Origin: Candidatus Aerophobota bacterium
GTDB taxonomy: Bacteria > Aerophobota > Aerophobia > Aerophobales > JAGGXI01
Length of the DNA: 64,000 bases
NCBI GenBank assembly: GCA_021163155.1
Contig: JAGGXI010000061.1
Span: forward strand, 18,768 to 82,767
Direction of reading: 5' to 3'
Shown here: piece after piece, positions 246-52,788 of the stretch
Layout of the letters: each line of letters starts with the position of its first letter
Position numbering within the stretch: the first letter of the stretch is position 1
Program-made: the position numbers and the translations under genes
The notes under the pieces: model-generated
What the model was told of the DNA's origin: nothing
The model's input: only the letters and a program-made list of their open reading frames with translations
Databases searched by the model: none

Positions 246-2875
<2,630 letters not shown>

Positions 2876-2884
2876 AAGTTAAAG

Positions 2885-3178
2885 GAAAAGGGATACCGGT
2901 AGCCGCAGGCTTTAGCCTGCGTAAAAGCAGGATTAGAGGGAAAAATAGGATTAGAGGATTTAAGGATTAGAGGATTAAAGAGAAAGAGATACCGGTAGCC
3001 GCAGGCTTTAGCCTGCGTAAAAGTAGGAGCAAAAGGAAAAATAGGATTAGAGGATTAGAGGATTAGAGGGAAAACCAAGAAAAAACAGAAACAAAAAAAA
3101 TAGGATTAAAGGATTAGAGAGAAAGGGATACCGGTAGCCGCAGGCTTTAGCCTGCGTAAAAGCAGGATTAAAGGGGAC
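2885..3178 (+). repeat. composite array of three REP-like elements (GATACCGGTAGCCGCAGGCTTTAGCCTGCGTAAAAGCAGG) interleaved with 8-bp GGATTARA tandem arrays and an A-rich AAAACCAAGAAAAAACAGAAAC module
   Basis: Core copies lie at about 2891-2939, 2988-3030 and 3126-3178. The GCAGGC-TTTA-GCCTGC stem-loop is preceded by GGTAGCC, a GTAG head. Tandem GGATTAGAGGATTAAAGG units lie between the cores. Confidence 0.85.
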
Positions 3179-3298
3179 TGTGCGTTGAAGTAGGTTAAAA
3201 ATACAGGAGGAGAAGTTCTTAAATAACCTTATTTATAGCAAAACGCAGGCTCTGGTTCAAAAAAAACAAGGTATTTTTGAAAGTATTGTAAAAGAGAG

Positions 3299-5764
3299 GT
3301 GATTAAAATGTTTAATAGATTTACTGAGAGAGCAAGACGTGTAATCTTATTATCTCGGGAAGAAGCTAAAAGATTGGGTCATGATTATTTAGGTACTGAG
3401 CATATTTTATTAGGTTTAATTCGAGAGGGAGAAGGAGTAGGGGCGGTAGCTTTGCAGAATTTAGGAATAGATTTATCTCAGGTTCGCACAGAGGTAGAAA
3501 AGGCTGTAGGTAGGGGGGGAGGCATTCTATTTTTAGGGCAGATACCTTTTACACCTCGTGCAAAAAAAGTGTTAGAGCTGGCAGTAGCAGAGGCTAAAGA
3601 GATGGGGCATAATTATGTAGGTACTGAGCATATTTTATTAGGTTTAATTCGAGAGGGAGAAGGAGTAGCCGCTCAAATCCTTACTAATTTAGAAGCAGAT
3701 TTGCATAAAGTGAGGGAGGAAGTACATAATCTTTTGGATGAGAAGGTATCTCCTCAGAAAGTAGTGGAGCATACTAATACTCCTACTCTCGATAGATTTG
3801 GGCGTGATTTAACTCAATTGGCTAAAAATGGAGAATTAGACCCTGTAATAGATAGAGAAAAAGAGATAGAACGGGTAATTCAGATTCTCTCTCGGCGAAC
3901 CAAGAATAATCCTGTACTAATAGGAGAGGCAGGTGTAGGTAAGACAGCTATTGCCGAAGGGATAGCTCAAAAGATTGCTAAAGGATCTTTCCCTGAGCCT
4001 TTGCTAAATAAACGTCTGGTAACTGTTGAATTAGGAGGAATAGTAGCAGGAACTAAGTATAGAGGGGAATTTGAGAAAAGGATGGAGAAGATTTTAAATG
4101 AGATCAGAAAATCCAAAAATATAATCCTTTTTATAGATGAGGTGCATACTTTGGTAGGAGCAGGAGCAGCTGAGGGAGCTATAGATGCTTCCAGTATTCT
4201 TAAGCCGGCTTTAGCAAGAGGAGAACTACAATGTATCGGGGCAACTACTTTAAATGAGTATAGAAAATATATTGAGCGAGATGAAGCACTGGAAAGAAGA
4301 TTTCAACCTGTGATTATAAAGGAACCCACAGTTAATGAGACTATAGAAATTTTGAAGGGCTTAAGAGATAAATATGAGGCTTTTCATAGAGTCAAAATAA
4401 TTGATGAGGCTTTGATATCAGCGGTTAGGCTCTCTAATAGATATATTCAAGATAGATATCTTCCTGATAAAGCTATTGATGTAGTCGATGAGGCAGCAGC
4501 ACGGGTAAGATTACGAAGTAACACTCGTCCTCAGGGACTTAAGAAAATAGAGGCAGAGTTAGAACATTTAAGAAAAGAGAAAGAATCAGCGATTAAGATG
4601 CAAGAATTTGAAAAGGCTGCGGGATTAAGGGATAAGGAGAAGGGTTTAAAGCAGGCTTTAACTAAAGAGAAGAATGAATGGGAAACAAATAAGGGAAAAG
4701 GAAACATAAAAGAGGAGGTAACAGAAAAAGATATAGCTTATATTGTTTCTAGCTGGACTAATATTCCACTTCGTGACTTGACAGAAGAAGAGTCTAAGAA
4801 GTTGCTCCGAATGGAGGAGGTTTTACACCAGAGGATAGTAGGGCAGGAAGAATCTATAAAAGCAGTCTCTCAAGCTATTCGACGAGCTCGAGCTGGAGTA
4901 AAGAATATCAAAAGACCAATCGGAGCTTTTATCTTCCTTGGCCCTACAGGGGTAGGTAAGACAGAGCTAGCTAAAAGTTTAGCTGAATTTCTCTTCGGTG
5001 ACGAAGATGCTATGATTCGTCTGGATATGTCTGAATATATGGAAAAGTTTACTGTTTCCCGACTTACAGGTGCTCCTCCTGGTTATGTTGGGTATGAAGA
5101 AGGAGGAGAATTGACAGAAAAAGTGAGACGTCGTCCTTATTCAGTAATCCTTCTGGATGAGATAGAAAAAGCACACCCTGATGTTTTTAATATCCTTCTT
5201 CAAATTATGGAAAACGGAAGGTTATCTGACAATTTAGGACATACAGTAGATTTTAGGAATGCAGTCTTAATTATGACTTCTAATTTAGGTGCAGAACAGA
5301 TTATTAGCGGAGCTAATGTAGGATTTCAAACTGACAAAGAGAGAAGGTTATCCTATGAAGAGATGAAAAGTAGGGTCCTTTCGGAATTAAAGCGCCATTT
5401 TCGTCCAGAGTTTCTGAACCGTTTAGATGAAGTAATTGTCTTTCATGCTTTAACTAATGAAGAAATAAAAAAGATTGTTGATTTGATATTAAAGGAAGAA
5501 AAAAAGTTATTAGAAGAAAAGGAGATATTTTTAGAGGTTACTGATAAAGCAAAGGATTTAATTGCTAAAGAAGGATATGACCCAGATTTTGGAGCGCGTC
5601 CTCTTCGCAGAGCTATTCAAAGGCTAATCGAAGACCCTCTTTCAGAAGAAATTTTAAAAGGTAAATTTAAAGAAGGAGATAATATAATGGTAGACATAAA
5701 GGATGGAGATATTGTCTTTAGCAAGAAGAAAAAATTAGCGCAAAAAAGTGTTAATCGTAAGTAG
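3299..5764 (+). CDS. clpC: ATP-dependent Clp protease ATP-binding subunit ClpC (class III stress AAA+ chaperone)
   Basis: 821 aa. Duplicated Clp_N repeats ([15 protein letters not shown] twice), two AAA+ modules ([25 protein letters not shown]) and a UVR-like middle region. Confidence 0.9.
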
Positions 5765-6075: not shown

Positions 6076-8046
6076 ATGATGATAAATAAGAGGATATTTC
6101 TCCTTTATAATTTTAAAGAGGGGCTTTTTATTAAGAAGATAATAGGATTGATTGCTTTCTCTGTTTTAATCTTTGCTTCTTTGAACTCGATAGCTCATGC
6201 TTCCTCTATTATCACAGATATTCAAATAAAGGGAAATCAACATATTAAAGATAGTAAGATTAAAAAGATTATTAAAAGTAAAGTAGGCAAGGGTTTTTCG
6301 GAAACAAAGATAAAGGAAGATATGCAAGCTATCTATGATATAGGTTGCTTTTCCACCATTAAAGTTCTGAGGGAGAATACAGAAGGAGGGATGATACTGA
6401 TATTTGAGGTTAAAGAAAATAAAGAGATTACTCAAATTGAGTTTAAAGGGGGAGAAGACAATATAAGCAAAGTAAAAAAACTAATCACTTTTAAAAAGGG
6501 ACAGTTATGGAACTTTAAAAAAGTAAAGAAAAGCAAAGAAAAGATTTTGAAATTTTATCAAGAGAAAGGATTTTTCGCTGTTTCAGTAGATATCTCTCAA
6601 AATGGCTTAGGAGAAAACAAGTGTAAAGCTATTATTAATATTAAGCCAGGCAGAAAGTTTTTTATTTCAGAAGTTAAAATAGAGGGGAATAAGATTTTAA
6701 ATAGACAAAGCATTATGGAAGAGCTACAAATAAAGAAAAATGGACTTTTTATTCCTGACCAGCTTAATAAGGGAATAAAGAGAGTGCGAAATATATACGG
6801 AGAAAAGGGATATATTTACGCTCGTATTAAACATGATTTAGAAGTTAACCGGGAGAAAAATAGGGTAAAAGTTATTATTAATATAGAGGAAAATATTTTA
6901 GTAAGAGTAGGAGAGATTAAATTAAAAAGAGATAATATATCTTCTAAAGAAAGGATATTAAAACACACTTTTTTATTGAAAAAAGGAGATATATTTAATA
7001 CAAAGAAAATCCAAGAAAGTTGGCGTAGACTTTATAATCTTGGCTTCTTTGAAAAAGTGGAAATTAAACCTGTCCCTACTTCTTCTCCGGCTATAATAGA
7101 TTTGGTGGTTGAAGTAAAAGAGATAGAGAGAAAAGGAGAGTTAATTTTAGGGGTAGGTTATAGTGCTAATTCTGGATGGGGTGGAAATATACAAATATCA
7201 AAAGATAATCTCTGGGGAGAGGGAAAAAAGATAGGGATTGACTGGAATTTTGGAGAAAAGAGAAGTAGTTATGATATGGATTATCTGGATAGATGGTGGC
7301 AAGATACTTCTAATAGCGTTCGCATTAACCTTTATAATAAACTGCACACCTATGAAGATTATGAGAAGGGAGAGATGGGAGGAAGGCTAATTTTGGGATT
7401 CCCAGCAGGAAAATATACTCAGTTTTTTTTAAATTTCAAAAATGATAATGTAAAGATTACAAAAACAGGAAACTCTTTACCAGAAGGACTTGAAGAGGGG
7501 GTAAAGCTTAGAAGAATTTTAGGTCTTATGTTGCAGAAAGATACGCGGGTAAGAGATGAGGTTTTTAATTCTTATAAAGGTTCTTATACCTCTTTTTCTT
7601 TAGAGAAAAGCGGGGACTTTTTAGGAGGAGATATTAAGTTTGTTAGTTATGGAGCTGAGTGGAGAGGATATTTTCGAAAAGGTAGCCTTTGGAAGTTCCC
7701 TATCTTAGCTTGCCGTTTACAGGGAAAATTAGGCGAGAACCTCCCGTATACAGAAAAATTCAGTATGGGTGGTCAGGAGAGTTTAAGGGGATATAAATAC
7801 GGTGAGTTTGAGGGAGATAAGTTACTTCTTGGAAATCTGGAGTTAAGGATTCCTGTAGGTAAAGATTTTACATTTTTGCTATTTGTCGATAGTGGAAGAA
7901 TGTGGGATAGAGATTTAAAATTTTTTAAAACAGGTTGGGGGCTTGGGCTGAAAGTTAAGAGTCCTTTGGGTCTTATCCGTATGGATTATGGAATAGGGGA
8001 AGATAATAGAGGAAGATTTTACTTTGGAATAGGGGAGGGATTTTAG
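6076..8046 (+). CDS. bamA: outer membrane protein assembly factor BamA / Omp85 family (POTRA repeats plus C-terminal beta-barrel)
   Basis: 656 aa. Signal/TM segment, POTRA-like repeats (IQIKGNQHIKDSKIKKII), C-terminal barrel ending ...RFYFGIGEGF with aromatic terminal residues. Confidence 0.8.
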   Translation: MMINKRIFLLYNFKEGLFIKKIIGLIAFSVLIFASLNSIAHASSIITDIQIKGNQHIKDSKIKKIIKSKVGKGFSETKIKEDMQAIYDIGCFSTIKVLRENTEGGMILIFEVKENKEITQIEFKGGEDNISKVKKLITFKKGQLWNFKKVKKSKEKILKFYQEKGFFAVSVDISQNGLGENKCKAIINIKPGRKFFISEVKIEGNKILNRQSIMEELQIKKNGLFIPDQLNKGIKRVRNIYGEKGYIYARIKHDLEVNREKNRVKVIINIEENILVRVGEIKLKRDNISSKERILKHTFLLKKGDIFNTKKIQESWRRLYNLGFFEKVEIKPVPTSSPAIIDLVVEVKEIERKGELILGVGYSANSGWGGNIQISKDNLWGEGKKIGIDWNFGEKRSSYDMDYLDRWWQDTSNSVRINLYNKLHTYEDYEKGEMGGRLILGFPAGKYTQFFLNFKNDNVKITKTGNSLPEGLEEGVKLRRILGLMLQKDTRVRDEVFNSYKGSYTSFSLEKSGDFLGGDIKFVSYGAEWRGYFRKGSLWKFPILACRLQGKLGENLPYTEKFSMGGQESLRGYKYGEFEGDKLLLGNLELRIPVGKDFTFLLFVDSGRMWDRDLKFFKTGWGLGLKVKSPLGLIRMDYGIGEDNRGRFYFGIGEGF

Positions 8047-11499: not shown

Positions 11500-11598
11500 A
11501 GCAAGATTAAAGGATTAAAGGGAAGGAGATACGGTAGCCGCAGGCTTTAGCCTGCGTAAAAGCAAGATTAAAGGATTAAAGGATTAGAGGATTAAAGA
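11500..11598 (+). repeat. REP-like element (TACGGTAGCCGCAGGCTTTAGCCTGCGTAAAAGC) flanked by GGATTAAA/GGATTAGA 8-bp arrays
   Basis: Same core as at 2891-3178. The GGA-rich strand is on plus, matching the flanking ogt and secA. Confidence 0.85.
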
Positions 11599-11622: not shown

Positions 11623-11690
11623 ATACTACCGAATTCATTCGGTGGTAGCTTATGTCTACAGCGAAGCGATGGTGTTAACCACTGTAGAAC
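11623..11690 (+). repeat. third repeat family, about 52-nt unit, two hairpins (ACCACCGAATTCATTCGGTGGT...GCGAAGCGATGGTGTTAACCAC)
   Basis: Homologous copies at 23509-23570 (plus) and 35995-36060 (minus, circularly permuted, about 1.3 units). Confidence 0.7.
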
Positions 11691-11704
11691 TTAATAAATT
11701 TTCC

Positions 11705-18948: not shown

Positions 18949-20625
18949 ATGGATAATTCTATAAAAAAGTTAATAAAAGATTCATTATGGAAAGGCTGCG
19001 AGAAACTTGAAAGAGTAGGAATTTCTCTATCATCTCTTCCCCCTATTTTTATTAGTCAGCCAAAAAGAAGAGAATGGGGGGATCTTTCTACAAATCTTCC
19101 CTTTTTATTACAGAAAAAAAGTGGGGAAGATATCTCTAAGATAGGGAATCTGTTAGTCTCCCAACTTGAAAGCGAGGGTTTTCTTTCTCGAGTGAAGTTT
19201 GTTTCTCCCGGTTTTATAAATTTTTTTATTGCTCCTTCTTACTTAAATCAAACTATTAAGAAGATAATTGTCCAAAAAGAAAAATTTACTCAGTTTTCTT
19301 TTGGAGACAAAAAAAGGGTGCAGGTGGAGTTTGTTTCGGCTAACCCTACAGGCCCTCTTCATGTTGGCCATGGGAGAGCGGCGGCTTTAGGAGATAGTTT
19401 AGCCAATATTCTCTCTAAAGTTGGTTATGAAGTAAAAAGGGAGTATTACATTAATGATGCGGGAGGTCAAATAAAAAGATTAGCACTCTCAGTCTGGGTC
19501 CGTCTGCAGGAAATAGAAGGGATTCATGTTCCTCTTCCTGATGATGGATATAAAGGACTTTACTTAATAGATATAGCTAAAGAAGCAAAGGATACTTTAG
19601 GAGAAAAGCTCAGGCAGGAAAAGAACGAGCAAAAATTAATTAATCTATTAGGTAAGTTTACTGTAGAATATATATTAAAGGAAATTAAAAGGGATTTAGA
19701 TGAATTTGGGGTTAGGTTTGATAGATGGTTTAGAGAATCGAGTTTATATAGGAATGATGAAATCCCCCAGGTTGTCTCCTTTATTAAAGATAAAGGTTAT
19801 ATATATGAGAAAGACGGTGCCCTATGGTTCAAAACCTCTTCATTTTTTAAAAATGAGGAAGATAGAGTTCTTAAACGTAAAAATGGAGAATATACTTATT
19901 TTGCCAGTGATGCTGCTTATCATCAAAACAAATTCTCTCGTGGACTTCATCAGGTTATCGATATTTGGGGTGCTGACCATATAGGATATGTTCCTCGTAT
20001 GAAGGCGGTAGTCCAGGCATTAGGTTATCCTAAAGACTCTTTACGCGTGATTATTTATCAATTTGTGAATTTAAAAAGAGGAGAAAAGAGTATCTCTGCT
20101 TCTACAAGGGAAGGAGAATTTATCTCCTTAAGAGATGTTATAAAAGAAGTAGGTAGTGATGTTGCTCGTTTCTTTTTTCTTTCCCGTACAGGAGATTCTC
20201 ATCTTGAATTTGATTTAGATTTAGCTAAGAAACAAAGCCCTGAAAATCCTGTATTTTATGTTCAGTATGCTTATGCGCGTATATGTAGTATTTTAAGAAA
20301 AGCAACGTTGGAAGGAATAATTGTAGATAATCTTGAGGAAGTAAAACTTGATTTATTGATAACTCCTGAAGAAAGAGAGCTTATGAAGGAATTGGCCCTT
20401 TTACCTGACCAGATAAAGGAGGCAGCACAGAGTCTTGAACCTCATCGTCTTACTGTCTGTCTACAAGAAATAGCCTCTTCATTTCATCAATTTTATACTC
20501 GTCATAGAGTTATAAGTGAAGATAAAGATTTAACTTTCGCTCGCCTCATTTTAATAAAAGCTGTCAAAATTGTTATTAAGGATACCCTTGGCTTGTTGGG
20601 TATCTCTGCCCCAGAAAGGATGTAA
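18949..20625 (+). CDS. argS: arginine--tRNA ligase
   Basis: 558 aa. HIGH-type motif (SANPTGPLHVGHGR), DALR anticodon-binding C-terminus. Confidence 0.92.
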   Translation: MDNSIKKLIKDSLWKGCEKLERVGISLSSLPPIFISQPKRREWGDLSTNLPFLLQKKSGEDISKIGNLLVSQLESEGFLSRVKFVSPGFINFFIAPSYLNQTIKKIIVQKEKFTQFSFGDKKRVQVEFVSANPTGPLHVGHGRAAALGDSLANILSKVGYEVKREYYINDAGGQIKRLALSVWVRLQEIEGIHVPLPDDGYKGLYLIDIAKEAKDTLGEKLRQEKNEQKLINLLGKFTVEYILKEIKRDLDEFGVRFDRWFRESSLYRNDEIPQVVSFIKDKGYIYEKDGALWFKTSSFFKNEEDRVLKRKNGEYTYFASDAAYHQNKFSRGLHQVIDIWGADHIGYVPRMKAVVQALGYPKDSLRVIIYQFVNLKRGEKSISASTREGEFISLRDVIKEVGSDVARFFFLSRTGDSHLEFDLDLAKKQSPENPVFYVQYAYARICSILRKATLEGIIVDNLEEVKLDLLITPEERELMKELALLPDQIKEAAQSLEPHRLTVCLQEIASSFHQFYTRHRVISEDKDLTFARLILIKAVKIVIKDTLGLLGISAPERM

Positions 20626-20640
20626 ATGACAGGTATCTCA

Positions 20641-20852
20641 TAGTTTAGTTCGGTAGCCGCAGGCTTTAGCCTGCGCTTTATCGCAACTTAAAAGTTGCGG
20701 CTACCATATCTATTTTCTTTAATCCTGTTTTTTGTTTTCGGTTTTCCCCTTTTTCTTTTCCCTCTAATCCTGTCTTTACGCAGGCTAAAGCCTGCGGCTA
20801 CCGGTATCTCTTTCCCTTTAATCCTCTAATCCTTTAATCCTCTAATCCTGCT
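20641..20852 (-). repeat. REPIN-like doublet (GGTAGCCGCAGGCTTTAGCCTGCG...GCAACTTAAAAGTTGCGGCTACC), then a minus-oriented REP core and CTAATCC arrays
   Basis: Inverted GGTAGCCGC/GCGGCTACC arms enclose two stem-loops (20648-20705). A minus-oriented core lies at 20775-20806 with arrays up to the mgtE stop. Confidence 0.85.
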
Positions 20853-20855
20853 TTT

Positions 20856-22223
20856 TTAGCTTCCCAAAAGATGAATGGCTATTTCAAAGTAAGCTATTAA
20901 AGAAATTATATCTACGATAGATGTAATTAAAGGACCGGAAATAAGAGCAGGGTCAACTCCTATACGTTTAAAGAAAAGGGGTAGAGTAGACCCCAAGCAG
21001 GTAGCGATAATTACTGTAATAATCATAGTTAAACTTACAGTAAGTGATACAAAGGGATTTCCCTGTAAAAGCACAGCTCTAAAGAGGGTTACTATACCTA
21101 AAGCTACGGCTACCATTATACCAACAATAAATTCTTTTCTAAGTACCTTCCATATATCTTTTAATTTAACTTCCCCTGTAGCCAGGCTTCTTACCATTAC
21201 TGTTGCTGCTTGAGTGCCTGCATTTCCTCCTGTATCCATAAGTAAGGGAATAAAGAAGGAAAGAGCAATCGCATTTCTTACAACGAAAGAATAATTTTTA
21301 AGGATAGTCCCTGAGAAAAAATCCATAATAACAAATATCAATAAATAAAGAACTCTATGTTTAGCGATAAAGGATGGCCTCATTGACATATAATTTTTTA
21401 TATGTTTTCCGGCTGCACTTACTTTGTACATATCTTCGGTATTCTCTTCCTTAATGACATCTATAATATCATCTACAGTAATAATTCCTTTCATTTCTCC
21501 ATTATCTACAACCGGCAAAGCTAATAAATCGTATCTAGCAATTTTCTTGGCTACCTGTTCCTGGTCCATATTTACCGGAATAGTGATAAATTTGGTGTGC
21601 ATAATTTCGTTTATTATTTTTTCAGGTTCTGCTAATACTAAATCCTTAAGAGATACTACTCCCACTAATTTATTGTTTTTGCTTAGTATATAAATGTAAT
21701 AAACCATCTCCAAATCTTTTGCTGTTTTTCGTAAATTATTTAATGCTTCTTTTGCAGTTATATTCTCTTTTACATAAGCAAAATCTGTAGTCATTCTCCC
21801 GCCAGCAGTATTTTTATCATACCTCATCAATTCTCTGGTCTCTCTGGCCTCCTCTTTTTTCATAACGTTGAGGAAGCGAGCTACCATTTCTTCGGGTAGC
21901 TCCTCAAAGAAGTCCACTCTTTCGTCAGGAGCAAGCTCGTCCAATATGTTTCTTTTCCGTGTTTCATCGATTGCTTCAATTAAAATGATTTGATCATCTT
22001 TGTCCATCTTTTCAAAGATATCGGCAGCAAGGTCTATATTACATAAAGAAAAAAGATAAACTTTCTCTTTTAAATCAAAGTTTTTCAGCATTTCTGCTAT
22101 TTCAATAGGTTCGTATTCTTGAAAAAGAGATTTTATCTCGTCTTTTTTATTTTCGGAAAGAAGCTTTTTTATCTCTGGTAATATTAAAGATATTCGGGAA
22201 AATTTATTTGCCATATTCTTCAC
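20856..22223 (-). CDS. mgtE: magnesium transporter MgtE (N-terminal MgtE_N, tandem CBS, C-terminal TM domain)
   Basis: 455 aa. Domain order and the conserved TM region (PLLMDTGGNAGTQAATVMVRSLATGE). Confidence 0.9.
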   Translation of the reverse strand: MKNMANKFSRISLILPEIKKLLSENKKDEIKSLFQEYEPIEIAEMLKNFDLKEKVYLFSLCNIDLAADIFEKMDKDDQIILIEAIDETRKRNILDELAPDERVDFFEELPEEMVARFLNVMKKEEARETRELMRYDKNTAGGRMTTDFAYVKENITAKEALNNLRKTAKDLEMVYYIYILSKNNKLVGVVSLKDLVLAEPEKIINEIMHTKFITIPVNMDQEQVAKKIARYDLLALPVVDNGEMKGIITVDDIIDVIKEENTEDMYKVSAAGKHIKNYMSMRPSFIAKHRVLYLLIFVIMDFFSGTILKNYSFVVRNAIALSFFIPLLMDTGGNAGTQAATVMVRSLATGEVKLKDIWKVLRKEFIVGIMVAVALGIVTLFRAVLLQGNPFVSLTVSLTMIITVIIATCLGSTLPLFFKRIGVDPALISGPLITSIVDIISLIAYFEIAIHLLGS

Positions 22224-22237
22224 CTCCCCTTTTATTT

Positions 22238-22275
22238 AAGCATTAATAAAAATGTGCCTTAACGGCACATTTTTT
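22238..22275 (-). promoter_or_regulatory. terminator-like stem-loop (ATGTGCC-TTAAC-GGCACAT) flanked by A- and T-runs in the mgtE leader; possible attenuator or riboswitch expression platform
   Basis: Perfect 7-bp stem about 35 nt upstream of the mgtE start codon, with a U-tract on the sense (minus) strand. A full M-box could not be recognised. Confidence 0.3.
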
Positions 22276-22402
22276 GGCTTAGCCAACTTAACAATAGCAA
22301 TTTAATTTTAACAAATTTTTATAAATAAAGCAAATTTTTGACTTATTTTTTGAATTTGATACGGTAAGAATAGAGATTTATAAAAAAAATGAGAAAAGAG
22401 GA

Positions 22403-22498
22403 AAAGCAGGATTAGAGGATTAAAGGATTAGAGGATTAGAGGGAAAGAGATACCGGTAGCCGCAGGCTTTAGCCTGCGTAAAAGCAAGATTAGAGGGA
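22403..22498 (+). repeat. REP-like core with GGATTAGA arrays in the suhB 5' leader, ending 8 nt before the ATG
   Basis: CAGGATTAGAGGATTAAAGGATTAGAGGATTAGAGGG-AAAGAGATACCGGTAGCCGCAGGCTTTAGCCTGCGTAAAAGCAAGATTAGAGGG. The terminal AGAGGGAAAAGAAAATG may act as the Shine-Dalgarno sequence. Confidence 0.85.
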
Positions 22499-22505
22499 AA
22501 AGAAA

Positions 22506-23288
22506 ATGATGGAAATAGCTGTAAAAGCCGCTAAAGAGGCGGGGAATGTATTATTAGATAACTTTGGAAAAGTTAAAGAAATAAAGACGAAGAGACAAAA
22601 TAATATTTTATCTCTTGTAAGTAATGTAGATATAGAGGCAGAGGAGAAGATATGCCATGTAATTAGGGAAATTTATCCTGAGCATAATATTCTTTCTGAA
22701 GAGGGAATGAATGTGAGTAAAAACTCTGATTATAAATGGATAATAGACCCTTTAGATGGTACTCATAATTATATTAGGAATATACCATTTTTTGGAATTT
22801 GTATAGCTCTTGCTTATCGGGGAGAGGTATTATTGGGAGTTATCTATTTGCCCTATTTTAGTGAGATGTTCACAGCCGAGAAAGGGAAGGGAGCTTATCT
22901 AAATGAGGGGAAAATTGAAGTATCCAAAAAAGGTCTAAAAGAAAGTATGCTAATTTATGATAGCGATCTTCACCTCGATAAAGCTATTATGTTTGGCTCT
23001 CTTAATAGGCTCGTGGGTAAAGTTTTTAATGTGAGGATGTTTGGCTCTTCTGCACAAAATCTCTCCTTTCTTGCCAGAGGTTATGTAGATTTAGTTATAG
23101 AATATCATGATAATCCTTGGGATTTTTCTGCAGGAGCTTTGCTGGTTGAGGAAGCAGGAGGAAAAGTAACAAATTTTGAGGGAAATAAATGGAGTCCAGA
23201 TGTGGGAAGATATGTTGCCTCTAATGGCAATGTGCATAACGAAGTTTTAAAAATATTAAAACGTGAGAGGCAAAAAAAGCAGGATTAG
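22506..23288 (+). CDS. suhB: inositol monophosphatase family protein (SuhB/IMPase-like)
   Basis: 260 aa. Motifs EEG (LSEEGMN), DPLDGT and the WDFSAG metal-binding segment. The stop codon TAG lies inside the first GGATTAG unit of the downstream repeat. Confidence 0.8.
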   Translation: MMEIAVKAAKEAGNVLLDNFGKVKEIKTKRQNNILSLVSNVDIEAEEKICHVIREIYPEHNILSEEGMNVSKNSDYKWIIDPLDGTHNYIRNIPFFGICIALAYRGEVLLGVIYLPYFSEMFTAEKGKGAYLNEGKIEVSKKGLKESMLIYDSDLHLDKAIMFGSLNRLVGKVFNVRMFGSSAQNLSFLARGYVDLVIEYHDNPWDFSAGALLVEEAGGKVTNFEGNKWSPDVGRYVASNGNVHNEVLKILKRERQKKQD

Positions 23289-23490
23289 AGAATTAGAGGA
23301 AAATAGATATGGTAGCCGCAACTTTTAAGTTGCGATAAAGCGCAGGCTTTACCCCGCTAAATAGTAGTAACATCTAATGGGGTTTAGCCTGCGTAAAGGC
23401 AGGATTAGAGGGAAAAGAAGGATTAGAGGATTAAAGGGAAAGAGATACCGGTAGCCGCAGGCTTTAGCCTGCGTAAAGGCAGGATTAAAG
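23283..23490 (+). repeat. composite REP array: REP variant (GGTAGCCGCAACTTTTAAGTTGCG), a REP core carrying a nested 33-bp ACCCC...GGGGT hairpin in its loop, GGATTAGA arrays, and a second intact REP core
   Basis: At 23341-23398 the sequence reads CGCAGGCTTT-[ACCCCGCTAAATAGTAGTAACATCTAATGGGGT]-TTAGCCTGCG. An intact copy follows at 23444-23478. Confidence 0.85.
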
Positions 23491-23508
23491 AAGAGTATGC
23501 TCTTAAGG

Positions 23509-23570
23509 AATACCACCGAATTTATTCAGTGGTAGCTTATGTCTACAGCGAAGCGGTGGTTTCAACCACC
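23509..23570 (+). repeat. third-family repeat copy; its second hairpin (GGTGGTTTCAACCACC) is followed by TTATTTT, which is terminator-like
   Basis: About 90% identical to 11623-11690. Confidence 0.7.
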
Positions 23571-23599
23571 TTATTTTATCTAAGGAAAGGAGATGTCCC

Positions 23600-24523
23600 T
23601 TGAGAAATTTAGAAGAATTAAAAAGAGAAGCTTTTCTTGCTGAAGATGAAGAATTATATGAATTAATTAAAGCAGTTAATAAAACTCTCCATAGGCAAAG
23701 AATTATTCAAAGAATAAACAATTTAAAGATTGAAGGGGGGTTAATTCATCTCCCGCCTGAAGGTATAGCTATTATAGTAGGGGATTTACATGGAGATTTG
23801 GAAAGCCTTGTCTCTATTTTAAAAGAGAGTAGATTTATAAAAAGAGTTAATAAGGAGAAAATATTTATAGTTTTTCTTGGAGACTACGGAGATAGAGGAG
23901 AAAACTCTATTGAAGTTTATTATATAATTTTAACCCTTAAAAGTGTATACCGAGAAAATGTTATTCTTTTAAGGGGTAATCATGAGGGGCCTAAAGACCT
24001 TGGGGTTAGTCCTCATGATTTACCATATTTTCTTAGGAAAAGATATGGAGAAAAATGGGAGAGGATTTATGTTAATTTAAGGGAACTATTTGATTTTTTA
24101 CCTTACAGTATTATTGTTAAAGATAAGTATTTAATGCTTCATGGAGGATTACCAGAAGATATTTCCTCAATTCACGATCTATCTTATGCTTATCAAAATC
24201 ATCCCGTTAAAAAGGATTTGGAAGAGATTCTATGGAATGACCCTGCGGAAATAGAGGGAAGCTATCCCTCGCCAAGAGGAGCAGGTAAAATATTCGGTAA
24301 AGATATTACTATGAAGATATTAAATAAATTAAACGTTAAAACTCTTATAAGAAGTCATCAGCCCTGTGATGGTATCCTCATAAATCATGAAGGAAAAGTG
24401 CTTACTCTGTTTTCTCGAAAAGGTCCTCCTTATTATAACTCTTGTGCAGCTTACTTAGAAATAGATTTATCTGAAGAGGCAAAAAGTGCTTACCAATTGG
24501 CAAAGAAGGCTTGTAAGTTTTAA
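23600..24523 (+). CDS. PPP-family serine/threonine protein phosphatase (calcineurin-like metallophosphoesterase)
   Basis: 307 aa. Signature GDLHGD, GDYGDRG and GNHE motifs. TTG start with an upstream AGGAAAGGAG. Confidence 0.75.
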   Translation: MRNLEELKREAFLAEDEELYELIKAVNKTLHRQRIIQRINNLKIEGGLIHLPPEGIAIIVGDLHGDLESLVSILKESRFIKRVNKEKIFIVFLGDYGDRGENSIEVYYIILTLKSVYRENVILLRGNHEGPKDLGVSPHDLPYFLRKRYGEKWERIYVNLRELFDFLPYSIIVKDKYLMLHGGLPEDISSIHDLSYAYQNHPVKKDLEEILWNDPAEIEGSYPSPRGAGKIFGKDITMKILNKLNVKTLIRSHQPCDGILINHEGKVLTLFSRKGPPYYNSCAAYLEIDLSEEAKSAYQLAKKACKF

Positions 24524-24535
24524 TTGAGTAATGTA

Positions 24536-24615
24536 CCGATTTTCGGTAGCCGCAACCTTCAGGTTGCGTATGAGCGCAAGCTCTGGGCCTCGTCGCTGGC
24601 AGCCGCGAGATAAAA
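24536..24615. repeat. degenerate, GC-rich REP variant (GGTAGCCGCAACCTTCAGGTTGCG...GCAAGCTCTGGGCCTCG...GCAGCCGCGAG)
   Basis: GTAG head and palindromes related to the CGCAGGCTCTGAGCCTCGCG subtype. Confidence 0.6.
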
Positions 24616-24637
24616 ATTAAATGTGGTATAAACTAAA

Positions 24638-25906
24638 ATGAATAAAGATTTGTTCTATTTTGATCAAGGAAAAAACGTGAAGAGGCAGGTTCCTTTAGCG
24701 GACCGTATACGTCCAAAAACACTGGATGAGTTTGTAGGACAAGAGGATATTGTAGGAGAGGGGAAGATTTTGCGGAAAATGATGGAGGAGGATAAATTAG
24801 CCTCTCTTCTCTTTTGGGGTCCTCCCGGTTCGGGAAAAACAACTTTAGCCTGTATTATTGCTCATCTTACTAAATCGCACTTTATCCATTTTTCTGCAGT
24901 CACCTCAGGTGTAGCTGAAGTTAGAAAAGTAGTGAAAGAAGCTCGGGCAAGATGGAAAATATATGGTCAAAGAACAATTCTTTTTGTTGATGAGATTCAT
25001 CGGCTTAATAAAGCCCAGCAAGATGCTTTTCTTCCTCATATTGAAGATGGAACCATTACTTTAATTGGTGCTACTACAGAGAATCCATCATTTGAGATTA
25101 TCGGACCACTTCTTTCCAGAACTAAAATTTTTACTTTAAAGAGATTAAGCTCGGAAGAAATTAAGAAGATATTAACTCGAGCTATGAAGAATAAGAAAAG
25201 AGGTTTGGGTGAATATAAGATAGAGATTAAACCTAAAATTTTAAACTTAATTGTTAATAACTCAAATGGGGATGCTCGTACAGCTTTAAATATATTAGAG
25301 ATAGCTGCTGATGTTACCAAACCAAATAGAGAGGGTATGCGTTTAATTAACTTAAAAACAGTGGAGGAAATTTTTCAGAATAAGACTCTATTATACGATA
25401 AAAAAGGTGAGGAGCATTATAATGTTATTTCTGCTTTCATTAAATCTATGCGAGGGTCAAATCCTGATGCTGCTCTTTACTGGCTGGCTCGGATGATTGA
25501 AACCGGGGAAGCTCCTCATTTTATTGCTCGCCGAATGGTTATTTTTGCTTCAGAGGATATAGGCAATGCTGACTCTCATGCTCTCTTAGTGGCTGTTGCA
25601 GCAGCTCAGGCAGTAGATTTTGTGGGTATGCCCGAAGCTCAAATCAATTTAGCCCAAGCGGCTACCTATTTAGCTTCCGCTCCTAAATCGAATGCTTCCT
25701 ATAAAGGTCTTTTAGCAGCAAAGGAAGATGTGAAGAAAAATCTAAATTTACCTGTGCCTTTACATCTACGTAATGCTCCTACTCCTTTAATGAAAAAGTT
25801 GGGTTATGGTAAAGATTATAAATACCCCCCTAATTTTCCCCAGGGCAAAGTAAAACAAGAATATCTACCAAAAGAACTTGAAAAGAAAAGATACTATAAA
25901 ATATAA
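24638..25906 (+). CDS. rarA: replication-associated recombination protein A (AAA+ ATPase RarA/MgsA)
   Basis: 422 aa. Walker A GPPGSGKTTLA, Walker B LFVDEIHRLNK, MgsA C-terminal helical domain. Confidence 0.9.
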   Translation: MNKDLFYFDQGKNVKRQVPLADRIRPKTLDEFVGQEDIVGEGKILRKMMEEDKLASLLFWGPPGSGKTTLACIIAHLTKSHFIHFSAVTSGVAEVRKVVKEARARWKIYGQRTILFVDEIHRLNKAQQDAFLPHIEDGTITLIGATTENPSFEIIGPLLSRTKIFTLKRLSSEEIKKILTRAMKNKKRGLGEYKIEIKPKILNLIVNNSNGDARTALNILEIAADVTKPNREGMRLINLKTVEEIFQNKTLLYDKKGEEHYNVISAFIKSMRGSNPDAALYWLARMIETGEAPHFIARRMVIFASEDIGNADSHALLVAVAAAQAVDFVGMPEAQINLAQAATYLASAPKSNASYKGLLAAKEDVKKNLNLPVPLHLRNAPTPLMKKLGYGKDYKYPPNFPQGKVKQEYLPKELEKKRYYKI

Positions 25907-25913
25907 GAAGAGT

Positions 25914-27812
25914 TTAGAAGGGTTCTTTCTCTAACCTTTCAAGAGTGTTTTGAAAATCTTTACTTAGTTGTCTGCTTGCCTTTTTAAATCCATCATAAAA
26001 TATTTCTGCCTTTTTTATTTGATTTAAAAATATTTTTTTAGTCTTATCTGATTTTAAATTCTCTTTTCTTTTTATTAAATAAAGATAAGGATACATATTT
26101 TCTTCGAGAAGTTTACGCAGGTAAGAGTCGCTGCCCATAATTTTATCTTTCAAATGGTTAGATTCTCTCATTAATCTATCTCTTTCTTGAAGATGTGGTT
26201 GCTTTTTTTTAATCTCTCTGAGAAGTTTTGCAATCACCTCTTTTCCTTGCTTTGCCCAAAAATTTATTTCATTTAACTTTATAATATTTTCTTTAAAAGA
26301 TTTTTTTAATTCCTTCAATTTTATTTCTTCTCGTTCGTTTGCTGCTTCATTCATAATTTTTCTTATTTCAATATCCTTACGGCAATACTTATCCATCGCC
26401 TCCTGAAGCTTCATTATTTTAGTTCCCCTTATTTTTGCTCCTCCTTCAGTAGCATCAATGCATTCAATATTAGCTTTTTCAATCATTCCTTCAAGAAATC
26501 TCAAATAGGAGTACATAGCCTCGTCTGTAGGAACCTTATTCCCGTAAACATCTTCAACCATTATTAAATTTTTAGCTATCCATTTTTTTTTACCTTTTAT
26601 AAGCAGATACTCTTTACCTGTTTTTTTATCTTTGCCAATTACCATTTTTTTGCGATAAGTAGCTCCTTTTCCATGGCTGAATCCTCCTGGATAGGAAAGG
26701 TCCTGTCCTATTAATATAATGGGGTTTCCTCCCACTGCTTTGGCTAAAGAAAAAGCTGTATGGGCTACAGAGGCTCCCTTTTGCAAGAAGCCTTTATCTT
26801 CTATAAATGAGTTTAACCAGAGAGTAAGAGGTTTATTTATATTGATAGCAAATTTTTTTCCTTTAAAATCGGATATTATTTCTGGATACACTTCGGGGTC
26901 AGTTGCAAGAAAAAGGTCTTCTGTCTTTTCCATTATTCCATTGAAGAGATTGCGTGTCCCTCCTCCAAAATCAATACTTATTACTATATCTGGTCTTATC
27001 TTATGTTGAAGCATAATTCTTAAGGCGGCATCTACGCAGATAATAAAAGCTTTATTTTTAGCCTGTTTTAAAAGATGGACATTTTTATCCAGGGAAGGAC
27101 CCGCAGCTACACAGATAACAGGTTTATTCTTAAACTTTCCAAAGATATTTTTTATCCCCGGGTTTTTAATCATTTGAGGAAGATTAGTTAAGATATTTTT
27201 TTGAAAGGTTACCCCTTTAGCTACATTAGTAGTTAAATTTGCTTTAGACCAGAGAATACTATCTTTAACAGCTTTTTTAATCTCTTTAAATTTATCTGGT
27301 AAAAGATGAAAAGAGGAAGGATGAGAGATAAGAGAACTTTTTCCAATTAAAAAAGTGGTTCCTGAGTCGCGTATCCTTCTTTCTATTTCTAAAGAGTTAT
27401 CTTCTGCAATCAATTTTATTTTTGGAGAAAGAAAAATATCGGATAAATCTATTAAAGATAAAATTTTTTTAAAAAGAGCGATATTTGGTTCTATTATTAG
27501 TATTAATTTAATTTTAGAATAGCTCTTTAATACTTCTCTTATATGGTAACCCATACCAAATCCAAGCACTATTAAAAAACGTGTCTTTTTTAGATTGTAG
27601 GCAGAGAGAAGATTGCGTGCTTCCTTAAAAGGGTCATAGGCGCTATGAAGAAGAATTCCTTCATTACCATTTCTTCTTACTTTAAGGGTAGGTAAGCCAA
27701 TTTTTGTCTGGATTATCTCTACAGAAGAGAGAGGTTTTATCTCCTTTATTTTCTCGGCTAAGTAAGGGTCTTTTTGTTTTAGTATAGCTATATTTTTAGT
27801 GTAGAAGTTCAT
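25914..27812 (-). CDS. maf: motility accessory factor (Maf; flagellin-glycosylation-associated, DUF115/MptE-like)
   Basis: About 630 aa, terminal in the flagellar late operon. The central region has the Maf/DUF115 glycosyltransferase-like pattern. The track start (27848) lies inside a REP element without an RBS. The M at 27812 is preceded by AAGGATAAGGA. An A10 tract lies at 26582-26591. Confidence 0.65.
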   Translation of the reverse strand: MNFYTKNIAILKQKDPYLAEKIKEIKPLSSVEIIQTKIGLPTLKVRRNGNEGILLHSAYDPFKEARNLLSAYNLKKTRFLIVLGFGMGYHIREVLKSYSKIKLILIIEPNIALFKKILSLIDLSDIFLSPKIKLIAEDNSLEIERRIRDSGTTFLIGKSSLISHPSSFHLLPDKFKEIKKAVKDSILWSKANLTTNVAKGVTFQKNILTNLPQMIKNPGIKNIFGKFKNKPVICVAAGPSLDKNVHLLKQAKNKAFIICVDAALRIMLQHKIRPDIVISIDFGGGTRNLFNGIMEKTEDLFLATDPEVYPEIISDFKGKKFAININKPLTLWLNSFIEDKGFLQKGASVAHTAFSLAKAVGGNPIILIGQDLSYPGGFSHGKGATYRKKMVIGKDKKTGKEYLLIKGKKKWIAKNLIMVEDVYGNKVPTDEAMYSYLRFLEGMIEKANIECIDATEGGAKIRGTKIMKLQEAMDKYCRKDIEIRKIMNEAANEREEIKLKELKKSFKENIIKLNEINFWAKQGKEVIAKLLREIKKKQPHLQERDRLMRESNHLKDKIMGSDSYLRKLLEENMYPYLYLIKRKENLKSDKTKKIFLNQIKKAEIFYDGFKKASRQLSKDFQNTLERLEKEPF

Positions 27813-27840
27813 TTCCTTATCCTTATCCTTATAAATATTG

Positions 27841-27897
27841 GCAGCCACAACTTTTAAGTTGCGTATATATTCGCAGGCTCTGAGCCTTGCGGCTACC
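27841..27897. repeat. REPIN-like doublet (GCAGCCACAACTTTTAAGTTGCG...CGCAGGCTCTGAGCCTTGCGGCTACC)
   Basis: Two REP subtypes in inverted orientation between the hypothetical gene and maf. Confidence 0.75.
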
Positions 27898-27952
27898 AGC
27901 TCAGGCTATGAGCTATTTTGAATTTTGTTTTGAATTTGCTATGAGCCATCAG

Positions 27953-28576
27953 CTAATTTAGGTGTTGATAAGCTGCAGCAGCTATCTTTTTTACTATTTC
28001 TGTCTCTTCTTTTATTTGGGGAACAAATTCGTATTCTAATATGTCAGCTAAAGTTAATAAATCATTATTTTTAATGGCTTTATTTGCTTCTTCAAGAAGG
28101 CGAATAAATTTTTCTATCTTTTCTTTCAATCTTTCTCCTTTGATAAAAATCTGATTATAATCCAGAGCAAGTATCTTTTCTATTTTCTTAAAAGCATTAT
28201 TAATTCCATCCCAGACATCTATGCAGTTGGTTAATAAGGAGAACGCTCTTCCGTATTCTGCTTCCTGGATAAGAGAAGACACTCTTTCCAGGCTTTCTGC
28301 CAATCGGGGCAGATGATACTCTATCTCTTCTAAGGCATTAATAGCCAACTGCCAGGGAGAAGAAGTAAATAACTCCAAAGTTTTAAATTCTTTAACTTTT
28401 CTTTCTCTTATCGCTTCCCTTTTCTCTTCTTGCAGGGGCTTGCCTTCTAATAAAATCTTAGTAATCACCCTTTTGTTTTCTGTCACCCATTTTTTAATTC
28501 CTTCAAGCACATTTTCTAAAGTCTCATTACCTTCAACAATAACGAGTTCTCTGTATCCGTCAATAATTATCTCCAA
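27953..28576 (-). CDS. hypothetical alpha-helical protein in the fliD-fliS operon (positionally equivalent to FliT)
   Basis: 207 aa. No motif recognised. It sits 11 nt downstream of fliS, where fliT lies in other flagellar loci. Confidence 0.4.
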   Translation of the reverse strand: MEIIIDGYRELVIVEGNETLENVLEGIKKWVTENKRVITKILLEGKPLQEEKREAIRERKVKEFKTLELFTSSPWQLAINALEEIEYHLPRLAESLERVSSLIQEAEYGRAFSLLTNCIDVWDGINNAFKKIEKILALDYNQIFIKGERLKEKIEKFIRLLEEANKAIKNNDLLTLADILEYEFVPQIKEETEIVKKIAAAAYQHLN

Positions 28577-28587
28577 TTTTAACCTCC

Positions 28588-28980
28588 TTAATTTTTTTCT
28601 TTGTGGGTTGGGTTTAGTCCAATAATTTGTGCCCAGCTATCTCTCAAGGGGGTAAGTAAACTTATCGCCTCATCAACTGCTTCTACATTTTTTTCCAGAT
28701 TAGCCTCTATCAATTTTCCATAAATGTAACCGTAAAGATTATACCAATGGGCAACAAATTTCCCTCTTTTTAAATCTAAAGAAAACATTAGTTCCCTTAC
28801 TATTTTTTCTGCTTTTAAAAGCAGACGGGAACTCTCTTCAATATTTTCTTCCCTCATCTTTGTTTTAGCCTGATTTAGGAATTTAATTGCTCCATTATAA
28901 AGAATAAGAATTAATTTTTCTGGAGAGCTGGTTTGAATCTCCATCTCCTTGTATTTTTTCAGTAAGCTCGTAGGATTCAT
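28588..28980 (-). CDS. fliS: flagellar export chaperone FliS
   Basis: 130 aa. FliS-like pattern (NPTSLLKKYKEMEIQTSSPEKLILILYNGAIKFL...) immediately downstream of fliD. Confidence 0.8.
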   Translation of the reverse strand: MNPTSLLKKYKEMEIQTSSPEKLILILYNGAIKFLNQAKTKMREENIEESSRLLLKAEKIVRELMFSLDLKRGKFVAHWYNLYGYIYGKLIEANLEKNVEAVDEAISLLTPLRDSWAQIIGLNPTHKEKN

Positions 28981-29004
28981 TTTTTATTTACCTTTCCTTT
29001 GTTT

Positions 29005-45157: not shown

Positions 45158-45382
45158 AAAGCGTTCTGCACTAACTAGTTTTTATACAGGGGAATCGGTG
45201 CGAGGATATAGACCTCATTTCCTCTTTTATTATGCACAGGAAGCTTATCTAAACCAAAGCCAAGCTTTTGCTCTTTGATCCTATTCTCTACCGTGGCTCG
45301 GTTATTGTAAAACCTATAGCAGGACAGTTTATCAAGCTCTTACGCAACCTGAAGGTTGCGGCTACCAATATTTTGCCTCCTT

Positions 45383-45935: not shown

Positions 45936-46130
45936 TTCCCTCTAATCCTCTAATCCTCTAATCCTTCTTTTTCCCTCTAATCCTGCCTTTACGCAGGCTC
46001 TGAGCCTCGCGGCTACCGGTATCTCTTTTTCTTTAATCCTGCCTTTTTGTTTCTGTTTTTTCCTGCTTTTCCCTCTAATCCTCTAATCCTCTAATCCTCT
46101 AATCCTGTTTTTTTTGTTTCTGCTTTTTTA
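45936..46130 (-). repeat. REP core (CGCAGGCTCTGAGCCTCGCGGCTACC subtype), CTAATCC arrays and an A-rich module between mogA and moaC
   Basis: CCCTCTAATCCTCTAATCCTCTAATCC...CCTTTACGCAGGCTCTGAGCCTCGCGGCTACCGGTATC...CTAATCCTCTAATCCTCTAATCCTCTAATCCTG. It overlaps the moaC 3' end. Confidence 0.85.
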
Positions 46131-48853: not shown

Positions 48854-48880
48854 CGGCTACCGGTTTTTAACATTACTATA

Positions 48881-52753: not shown

Positions 52754-52788
52754 CCTCGCGGCTACCATTTTTTTCGTGCAAAAGTTGG

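Follow-up and report, generated by a model that had tools for sequence, protein, structure and literature searches.

Which element gives rise to the GC-rich hairpins that recur between the genes of an AT-rich genome of a candidate phylum, and which enzyme acts on them? The question is raised by a stretch of 64,000 nucleotides from a Candidatus Aerophobota bacterium (Aerophobetes in the NCBI protein records; assembly GCA_021163155.1, contig JAGGXI010000061.1, positions 18,768 to 82,767), called the window in the following. An earlier reading of the sequence only (the sequence-only reading) had proposed repetitive extragenic palindromic (REP) elements with a GTAG head, partly arranged as inverted doublets (REPINs), and had connected them with REP-associated tyrosine transposases (RAYTs). 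This assignment was supported, with the GTAG head, a short GC-rich palindrome, a high intergenic copy number and inverted doublets all found. The window repeats are a genuine family of GTAG-headed REPs and paired REPINs. Very probably they are recognised as single-stranded DNA (ssDNA) by a RAYT whose single gene lies in another part of this Aerophobetes genome.

REP elements of the window

The 9-mer head GGTAGCCGC was found in 25 copies on both strands of the window, compared with 0.03 expected from 100 dinucleotide-preserving shuffles. Intergenic DNA accounts for 7.6 kb (12% of the window) and holds 24 of the 25 heads, which are spread over 15 of the 28 spacers of at least 60 nt, across 55 kb. 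GTAG is invariant in all 24 intergenic copies. The sole intragenic head (25658, minus strand) lacks a hairpin and probably matches by chance. As proposed before, the REP is more GC-rich than its host, with 67% G+C for the core and about 35% for the window.

The unit consists of (G)GTAG, one C, a 7-bp stem (CGC-A-NNN/NNN-T-GCG) and a TTTA or TTCA loop; its length across the subtypes is 24-26 nt. Type 1 reads GGTAGC-CGCAGGC-TTTA-GCCTGCG. The corresponding 24-mer GGTAGCCGCAGGCTTTAGCCTGCG is present in 12 exact copies, starting at 2898, 2994, 3133, 11533, 20652, 22455 and 23450 on the plus strand and at 20779, 34948, 36136, 37952 and 57263 on the minus strand, and a tolerance of up to three mismatches adds none. 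The sequence-only reading had listed 12 loci for this core (stem GCAGGC-TTTA-GCCTGC). Every one of them is real, with coordinates 2-8 nt off, and only the notation GGTAGCCGC-[GCAGGC...] has to be corrected, since it counts GC twice. The three palindrome variants named there also exist behind the same head, namely GCAACT-TTTA-AGTTGC, GCAACC-TTCA-GGTTGC and the bulged stem GCGAGGC-TCAG-AGCCTGC (GCGAGGCTCAGAGCCTGC). Two heads (52758 and 52926) are decayed.

Folded as ssDNA, a type-1 singlet forms the 7-bp stem CGCAGGC/GCCTGCG with a TTTA loop (-8.4 kcal/mol, z -3.3) and leaves GGTAGC unpaired at its foot. Four inverted doublets were identified. Those at 20652-20705, 48814-48861 and 57026-57089 had been predicted and do fold as ssDNA; the fourth, at 27841-27897, is degenerate. 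In the doublets an outer stem of GGTAGCCGC and GCGGCTACC bears the inner hairpins, resulting in a three-way structure (-12.8 to -18.7 kcal/mol, z -3.0 to -5.8). A search of the whole window against Rfam at gathering thresholds matched a molybdenum cofactor (Moco) riboswitch only and none of the REP elements; a separate search of 2860-3300 yielded nothing at E<=1. The elements and the octamer arrays associated with them, partly detected by Tandem Repeats Finder (TRF), are as follows.

2898-2921, plus strand: type-1 REP singlet GGTAGCCGCAGGCTTTAGCCTGCG; the purA-clpC spacer holds three copies head to tail, of which this is the first; exact 24-mer
2994-3017, plus strand: type-1 REP singlet, second copy, in a 96-nt tandem unit (TRF period 96 over 2879-3069)
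3133-3156, plus strand: type-1 REP singlet, third copy; exact 24-mer
2929-3069, plus strand: octamer arrays AGGATTAG/AGGATTAA between the REP copies (TRF, alignment of 12 composites)
11533-11556, plus strand: type-1 REP singlet with flanking octamers; exact 24-mer
20652-20705, unstranded: REPIN doublet of GCAGGC and GCAACT hairpins in a GGTAGCCGC/GCGGCTACC outer stem; -18.7 kcal/mol, z -5.8
20779-20802, minus strand: type-1 REP singlet downstream of the minus-strand gene 20856-22223; exact 24-mer
22455-22478, plus strand: type-1 REP singlet preceding the start codon at 22506 by 28 nt; exact 24-mer
23311-23334, plus strand: GCAACT-type REP, followed by a GCAGGC hairpin with a 33-nt loop insertion; subtype reading
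23450-23473, plus strand: type-1 REP singlet; exact 24-mer
24545-24568, plus strand: GCAACC-TTCA-type REP singlet; subtype reading and folding
27841-27897, unstranded: degenerate REPIN doublet, one foot mutated to GTGGCTGCC; -12.8 kcal/mol, z -3.0
34948-34971, minus strand: type-1 REP singlet; exact 24-mer
36136-36159, minus strand: type-1 REP singlet; exact 24-mer
37952-37975, minus strand: type-1 REP singlet in the largest octamer-rich spacer (37801-38122); exact 24-mer
45343-45366, minus strand: GCAACC-TTCA-type REP singlet; subtype reading
45992-46017, minus strand: bulged-stem REP singlet GCGAGGCTCAGAGCCTGC with octamer flanks as in type 1; subtype reading and alignment
48814-48861, unstranded: REPIN doublet between the Moco riboswitch aptamer and the start codon at 48791; -16.6 kcal/mol, z -4.6
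52758-52766, minus strand: REP head with decayed or partial palindrome (remnant); head match
52926-52934, minus strand: REP head only, adjoining a TAGAA repeat (remnant); head match and TRF
57026-57089, unstranded: REPIN doublet of bulged-stem and GCAACT hairpins; -14.6 kcal/mol, z -4.2
57263-57286, minus strand: type-1 REP singlet; exact 24-mer
11566-11597, 20815-20849, 22408-22442, 34895-34940, 36080-36106, 37904-38123, 45939-45965, 46072-46106 and 57340-57374: equivalent octamer arrays

RAYT gene in the same samples

No RAYT gene was detected in the window itself by a six-frame hmmsearch with a RAYT profile (best E 0.75). The population from which the window derives is represented in further assemblies. 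The PurA of the window is 100% identical to an adenylosuccinate synthase of NCBI (Candidatus Aerophobetes bacterium), and independent assemblies of four samples of the European Nucleotide Archive (ENA) and of one Logan run contain the purA-clpC region, again with these three REP copies. The ENA samples with the window region are those of SPET22-1 (SAMN18353072-75).

These assemblies also bear on whether the repeats might be limited to one region, as a CRISPR-like array, a local tandem artefact or an assembly artefact would be. The regular spacing of the three copies at 2898-3156 (96 and 139 nt) might be taken in this sense. However, the copies are dispersed over the 15 spacers mentioned above, the "spacers" among the three tandem copies are themselves repeats, and the independent assemblies of the four samples reproduce the array. 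The family is not restricted to this region, because other contigs of the population carry it as well. Such an identity is refuted by these observations, and its probability is negligible.

A RAYT was found on contigs from the window's own ENA samples (ERZ23499514 and ERZ23499350, SPET22-1; contigs L210 and L212) and in a metagenome of the Joint Genome Institute (JGI). The protein, P0244, has 161 amino acids and is named "transposase [Candidatus Aerophobetes bacterium]" by NCBI (MCD6472509.1). It scores 90.2 bits against the NCBIfam model NF047646 "REP-associated tyrosine transposase", for which the equivalog cut-off is 80, and contains the motifs DHLH and YLLNNP, both invariant or nearly so across 30 homologues. 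The P0244 contigs have 34-35% G+C and contain the three REP subtypes of the window, including "GGTAGCCGCAGGCTTTAGCCTGCGTAAAA" singlets with AGGATTAG octamers as in the window. On four contigs (L209, L210, L211 and L212) the gene is bracketed on both sides by GGTAGCCGC REPIN doublets, which is the classic layout of a "REPtron"; the GCAGGC/GCAACT heterodimer known from window 20652-20705 also flanks the RAYT of L210. RAYT and REPINs are inserted, in the same orientation, between fliP and fliQ of a flagellar export operon (L209 10001-10486; L210 4054-4539).

We infer from the shared samples, the G+C content, the repeat families and the NCBI taxon labels that the RAYT contigs and the window belong to one genome. 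Thus, the connection with a RAYT drawn by the sequence-only reading was borne out by a REP-flanked gene in the same samples, but not within the window, and the common genome is a deduction.

REP and RAYT in other phyla

One genome per species was scanned with the exact 24-mer, which gave at least 116 loci. They belong to at least 75 assemblies labelled as about 20 phyla, range from 33 to 70% G+C and have unrelated flanks. A comparison of the window with all fetched loci by blastn showed matches of the REPs alone and no orthologous region. Among the matches listed, a locus of a Clostridia metagenome-assembled genome (MAG), L096, holds a Y1 transposase gene between two inverted REP copies. The best match in the PDB is 4ER8, TnpA(REP) of E. 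coli (E 5e-10). Homologues of the L096 protein are numerous (45-85% identity), with Syntrophomonadaceae, Elusimicrobia, Pseudomonadota, Firestonebacteria, Planctomycetota and WOR-3 among the names, and have the motifs DH[LV]H, WQKDFYDH and YIL(D/N)NP in common. Clustering of the open reading frames of the at least 116 loci, all against all, revealed no gene family regularly accompanying the REP, and only three RAYTs were found among the matches listed for these loci (motif filter, then hidden Markov model).

An independent sample was seeded with the RAYT and comprised 80 JGI metagenome loci with 38-74% identity and 32-68% G+C. The head GTAG[CT]CGC lies at most 130 nt upstream of the RAYT, facing in, at 49 of 78 loci, and its complement GCG[AG]CTAC follows downstream at 52 of 78; both sides are occupied at 37 of 76. 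The background density is 0.2 heads per kb. A head was present anywhere at 73 of the 80 loci and the exact 23-mer GTAGCCGCAGGCTT[TC]AGCCTGCG at 39. The RAYT clade and the near-invariant REP travel together in many phyla.

Of the 484 GTAGCCGC heads in the fetched sequences taken together, 328 precede a perfect hairpin of 6 bp and 4 nt. In total, 20 different complementary stems with TTTA or TTCA loop occur, so that the stem variation is compensatory and under structural constraint; the stem frequencies are skewed to GCAGGC, because this stem was the search key.

The upstream REP is often translated into the N-terminus of the RAYT by gene callers, giving peptides such as "GSRRLQPA" and "VAAGFSLR". 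N-terminal extensions or an insertion of this origin were seen in P0005, P0008, P0010, P0017, P0020, P0027 and P0035, the last with an in-frame REP peptide between the HuH and Tyr motifs. These peptides are a recurrent gene-calling artefact or in-frame REP insertions; the latter are known for RAYT subclass 2.4 (Quentin et al., PMC6006769).

In L096 an intact REP-RAYT-REP unit and a deleted one lie about 4 kb apart (2331-2500 and 6145-6670). The deleted copy consists of a REP, about 27 nt of the RAYT coding start, the last 47 nt or so and a REP of another stem subtype. It is 86-94% identical to the intact copy and resembles a miniature inverted-repeat transposable element (MITE) derived from the REPtron. 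As this internally deleted second copy shows, the whole unit has been copied at least once in L096, which is a behaviour like that of an insertion sequence (IS). Possible vectors of spread gave little: the family is rare in viral contigs, in that only 7 exact REP matches were obtained in 2.9 million viral contigs, and no close RAYT homologue was found on PLSDB plasmids (best 35% identity over half of the protein) or in GenBank phages.

Two larger arrangements of the REP were observed in other genomes. In the Caldimicrobium MAG CALLJI01 (L018, L035, L037 and L070) dense clusters similar to bacterial interspersed mosaic elements are made up of the GGTAGCCGC REP in alternation with another GTAG-headed family of REPs, GTAGGGGCACAGCATGCTGTGCCC. 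A longer element with inverted ends and a central REP, ATACCGAGTTGCAATCAAAAAGTAATTATT-REP-CCTGCACAGGCTGGAAAGCCTGTGCTACCAATTGACTGCGAAGTGGTAT, is a larger MITE-like derivative. It occurs in L026, L038, L049, L053, L083, L106, L108, L119 and others, that is in MAGs of Desulfobaccales and Syntrophobacterales and in one MAG labelled Anaerolineae.

Octamer-REP composites and gene orientation

In the window the conserved unit exceeds the hairpin. An alignment of 12 singlet loci, 11 of type 1 and the bulged-stem copy at 46009, gave a composite of the form (AGGATTAR)n-AGGGAAAGAGATACC-REP-TAAARGC-AGGATTAGAGGGAAAA-(AGGATTAR)n. All AGGATTAG/AGGATTAA octamer arrays detected by TRF are located in REP-containing spacers, and they often begin immediately 3' of the upstream stop codon. 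At 2879-3156 the composite is present in three head-to-tail copies. The array after purA in the assembly of sample SAMN18353072 (L004) has an extra octamer block, and the block between REP 2 and REP 3 is missing there. On the sister contig L209 the flgE-flbD spacer of 1 kb (3166-4191) contains four REP singlets and about 30 octamers.

The purine-rich strand, with GTAG first, is the sense strand of the flanking genes in 12 of 12 composites of the window and in 4 of 4 further ones on L209. The composite copies are therefore almost certainly transcribed, within 3' untranslated regions (UTRs) and intercistronic spacers. In the window gene direction is confounded with GC skew and possibly with the direction of replication. 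A single copy, at 20779-20802 on the minus strand, separates these trends: its neighbouring gene is on the minus strand whereas the region around is plus-strand, and the orientation of the copy follows the gene. Singlets of the same REP in other phyla show no bias (22 in the same and 16 in the opposite direction to the gene); hence, the orientation bias is peculiar to the Aerophobetes composite. Two properties of the window as a whole are recorded here. Purine loading of its sense strands is very strong, with GC skew as high as +0.39 and AT skew agreeing in sign. At about 24-26 kb, gene orientation converges, as does the cumulative GC skew; this point could be a replication terminus or a mere reflection of gene direction.

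Many of the hairpins lie just 3' of stop codons and have GC-rich stems in an AT-rich genome, as would be expected of Rho-independent terminators that became repetitive through the reuse of one terminator sequence. On the sense strand, however, the stem is not followed by a T-run, the 3' flank being the A-rich TAAAAGCAGG, and a terminator scan of 20000-39000 called none of the seven REP hairpins in that range. Furthermore, the copies at 22455 and 48814 each precede a start codon, with an aptamer or promoter region on their other side, and the same sequence flanks RAYT genes in many phyla. An identity as intrinsic terminators was rejected for want of the U/T tract after the GC-rich hairpin, and we regard it as very improbable.

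The composites might alternatively be functional mRNA elements in the first place, kept by selection as intercistronic or 3'-UTR stabilisers, processing sites or translation-modulating leaders, with their REP likeness being historical. REPs of E. coli stabilise upstream mRNA. The co-orientation with genes, including the discriminating copy at 20779-20802, and the arrays starting directly after stop codons are consistent with such roles. The 3' flank AGAGGGAAAAG of the REP at 22455 occupies the position of a ribosome-binding site and provides GAGGG about 9 nt before the start codon. Many GTAG REPs have been argued to act as RNA (Di Nocera et al. 2013, PMC3733652). On the other hand, the near-palindromic hairpin would fold in RNA either way round; the orientation bias therefore tracks the purine-rich flanks, and the sense strands of this genome are purine-loaded anyway. 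The missing bias in other phyla and the missing Rfam match of the REPs also speak against a primary mRNA function. We consider it rather unlikely; moreover, it is compatible with a REP/RAYT origin and not an alternative to it. Since the other phyla show no bias and the hairpin is symmetric, we favour a spread of the composites by slippage or recombination within arrays, together with selection or a transcription-linked bias for the purine-rich sense strand.

Short tandem arrays were also observed near REPs of other phyla. Heptamer arrays, which resemble the short tandem repeats of cyanobacteria discussed below, are the commonest short tandem repeat in the at least 116 REP-bearing loci (L006-L121, 785 kb), with 102 arrays of period 7 among the matches listed, compared with 37, 26 and 33 for periods 6, 8 and 9. 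Near REPs 17 short tandem repeats were counted, versus 4.8 at random positions, an enrichment which is confounded because REPs and arrays are both intergenic. Arrays adjoining a REP favour the side of the GTAG head (13 versus 1-2); this bias is real and concerns about 3% of the copies only. By eye, about 3 of 11 real arrays have units containing GT[AG]G.

Proposed mechanism

The mechanism that we propose for the REP/RAYT pair follows E. coli TnpA(REP) and IS608 as templates (PMC6006769). By analogy to TnpA(REP) and the IS200/IS605 family, the RAYT, a Y1 transposase of the HUH type, would bind the folded REP hairpin on ssDNA and read GTAG at its foot. It would cut nearby with its catalytic tyrosine via a 5'-phosphotyrosine intermediate and rejoin the strands. 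In this way doublets, and less efficiently singlets, could be copied or moved during replication. In Aerophobetes the dominant singlet is fused to the purine-rich AGGATTAG/AGGATTAA octamer arrays, and the composite is amplified in tandem and at many spacers. As a conjecture, it is plausible that the composite copies serve additionally as mRNA hairpins, either as stabiliser or as processing site.

Several points weigh against recognition of the window repeats by this RAYT. The gene lies outside the window, and its assignment to the same genome does not come from one contiguous sequence. Cleavage and transposition are predicted by analogy. Most copies of the window are singlets, which are poor substrates under the REPIN model; the spread of singlets and octamers may therefore owe more to recombination or slippage than to the RAYT. 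The strict co-orientation with genes is outside the prediction of a plain selfish-element model. Signs of activity are the altered array after purA in L004, the deleted copy of L096 and a polymorphism beside the Aerophobetes RAYT, where L209 and L210 have a REPIN unit of 72 nt that L211 and L212 lack; this polymorphism could, however, be due to the collapse of a tandem repeat in short-read assembly. The REP/RAYT origin remains nevertheless the reading to which we assign a high probability.

A further step would be to regard the pair as a horizontally mobile, IS-like REPtron and not as a "domesticated" system bound to its lineage by vertical inheritance. Its hairpin GTAGCCGCAGGCTT[TC]AGCCTGCG would then have been essentially frozen over about 20 phyla with 33-70% G+C, and its Aerophobetes singlets would have been captured into strand-specific, transcribed composites serving the mRNA. 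This extension is tentative, and we would sooner doubt than accept it. Weaker still is its corollary, according to which the heptamer and octamer arrays beside REP heads in many of these genomes were seeded or generated at the cleavage side of the RAYT.

Comparison with known systems

The sequence-only reading had not recognised the family, and the REP sequence was indeed absent, in both orientations, from the searched literature, including the supplements of Di Nocera et al. (2013). A search for Aerophobetes together with repeats gave nothing relevant. The architecture, GTAG-1/2-type REPs with a RAYT REPtron, is already known; of interest to specialists are that the REP hardly varies between phyla and between genomes of different base composition and that the octamer composites are strictly sense-oriented.

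In GTAG-1 and GTAG-2 REPs, for example of Pseudomonas, the tag is separated from the stem by a spacer (Di Nocera et al. 2013, PMC3733652). The present family agrees with them in the 5' GTAG, the 1-2 unpaired nucleotides that follow, the short GC-rich stem (6-7 bp) with its small loop and the conserved trinucleotide behind the stem. Also shared are the occurrence of several stem subtypes per genome, inverted dimers whose GTAG ends face outwards, clusters repeated in tandem along with flanking DNA, and a mostly intergenic position (PMC3733652). The inverted doublets of the window can be compared with the REPINs of Bertels and Rainey (2011). In contrast to GTAG-1/2 REPs, the Aerophobetes family belongs to a candidate phylum and not to Proteobacteria, its 24-mer is common to about 20 phyla instead of being species- or genus-specific, and its octamer-fused singlets outnumber the doublets and are strictly co-oriented with genes.

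The RAYT resembles class 2 Y1 RAYTs such as TnpA(REP) (4ER8) in its size of about 160 amino acids, the HuH motif DH[LV]H, the WQ motif and YIL(D/N)NP, as well as in the REPtron with inverted REPs and the occasional in-frame REP in the gene (P0035; PMC6006769). Likened by motif only, it is nearest to subclasses 2.5 and 2.7 of Quentin et al. (2018, PMC6006769). Subclass 2.5 is found mostly in xanthomonads and pseudomonads and 2.7 in cyanobacteria (PMC6006769), whereas the present clade occurs in Aerophobetes, Clostridia, Elusimicrobia, Planctomycetota, WOR-3, Firestonebacteria and others. The internally deleted, IS-like second copy in one genome is a further difference from class 2 RAYTs.

With IS200/IS605 elements and MITEs the system would share a Y1 HUH transposase acting on sub-terminal ssDNA hairpins, and a REP-RAYT-REP unit with its deletion derivative at two places of one contig is likewise reminiscent of IS200/IS605. 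It differs from them in a score of only 17-22 bits with the NCBIfam IS200 model (cut-off 55), in Y-x3-NP instead of Y-x3-Q, in the lack of tnpB and in dispersed hairpins that far outnumber the gene copies.

The short tandemly repeated repetitive (STRR) sequences of cyanobacteria, which Mazel and co-workers are said to have described in 1990, are reportedly short intergenic tandem arrays with a lineage-specific unit, occurring beside other small dispersed repeats. The Aerophobetes arrays are similar in their tandem units of 7-8 nt, found in intergenic DNA only and specific to the lineage, but here the unit is an octamer physically fused to the REP. We know of no described link between STRR arrays and REP/RAYT, and our indications of such a link are weak.

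To our knowledge, work on REP/RAYT systems has dealt almost exclusively with Proteobacteria and cyanobacteria in culture. From the work of Bertels and Rainey, REP sequences are reportedly species- or genus-specific and the systems are said to be generally viewed as vertically inherited. One recognition sequence preserved nearly letter for letter over uncultured lineages of many phyla, together with a recognisable RAYT clade and whatever the G+C content, provides a clean natural experiment for judging how narrowly a Y1 transposase restricts its substrate, and it bears on the question whether REPtrons move between phyla. The 24-nt sequence is a marker for finding REPtrons in metagenomes, and the Aerophobetes composites offer a tractable case for the co-option of selfish hairpins into mRNA. 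For annotation, it matters that gene callers turn these REPs into spurious N-terminal extensions such as "GSRRLQPA".

Additional observations in the window

The Moco/tungsten riboswitch aptamer (Rfam RF01055, 79.5 bits) is located at 48915-49033 on the minus strand, upstream of the minus-strand gene 47526-48791. The REPIN at 48814-48861 is about 23 nt from the start codon of this gene. Lying between aptamer and start codon, it may be a part of the expression platform of the riboswitch or may disturb it.

At 23340-23400 the TTTA loop of a GCAGGC REP is split by the 33-nt insertion ACCCCGCTAAATAGTAGTAACATCTAATGGGGT, itself a hairpin. Units of the form ACCCC...GGGGT, related to this insertion, make up a 36-nt tandem repeat at 34337-34413.

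Another repeat family, with copies of about 60-75 nt, was detected at around 11627-11700 and 23507-23580 on the plus strand and 35975-36060 on the minus strand, with the consensus ATACCACCGAATTyATTCrGTGGTAGCTTATGTCTACAGCGAAGCGrTGGTkTyAACCAC. It has no Rfam match at gathering thresholds and is situated downstream of REP composites, in sense orientation. An 11-bp hairpin is followed by a second one (GGTGGTTTCAACCACC with a T-run), and the copy at 23555 was called terminator-like by the scan.

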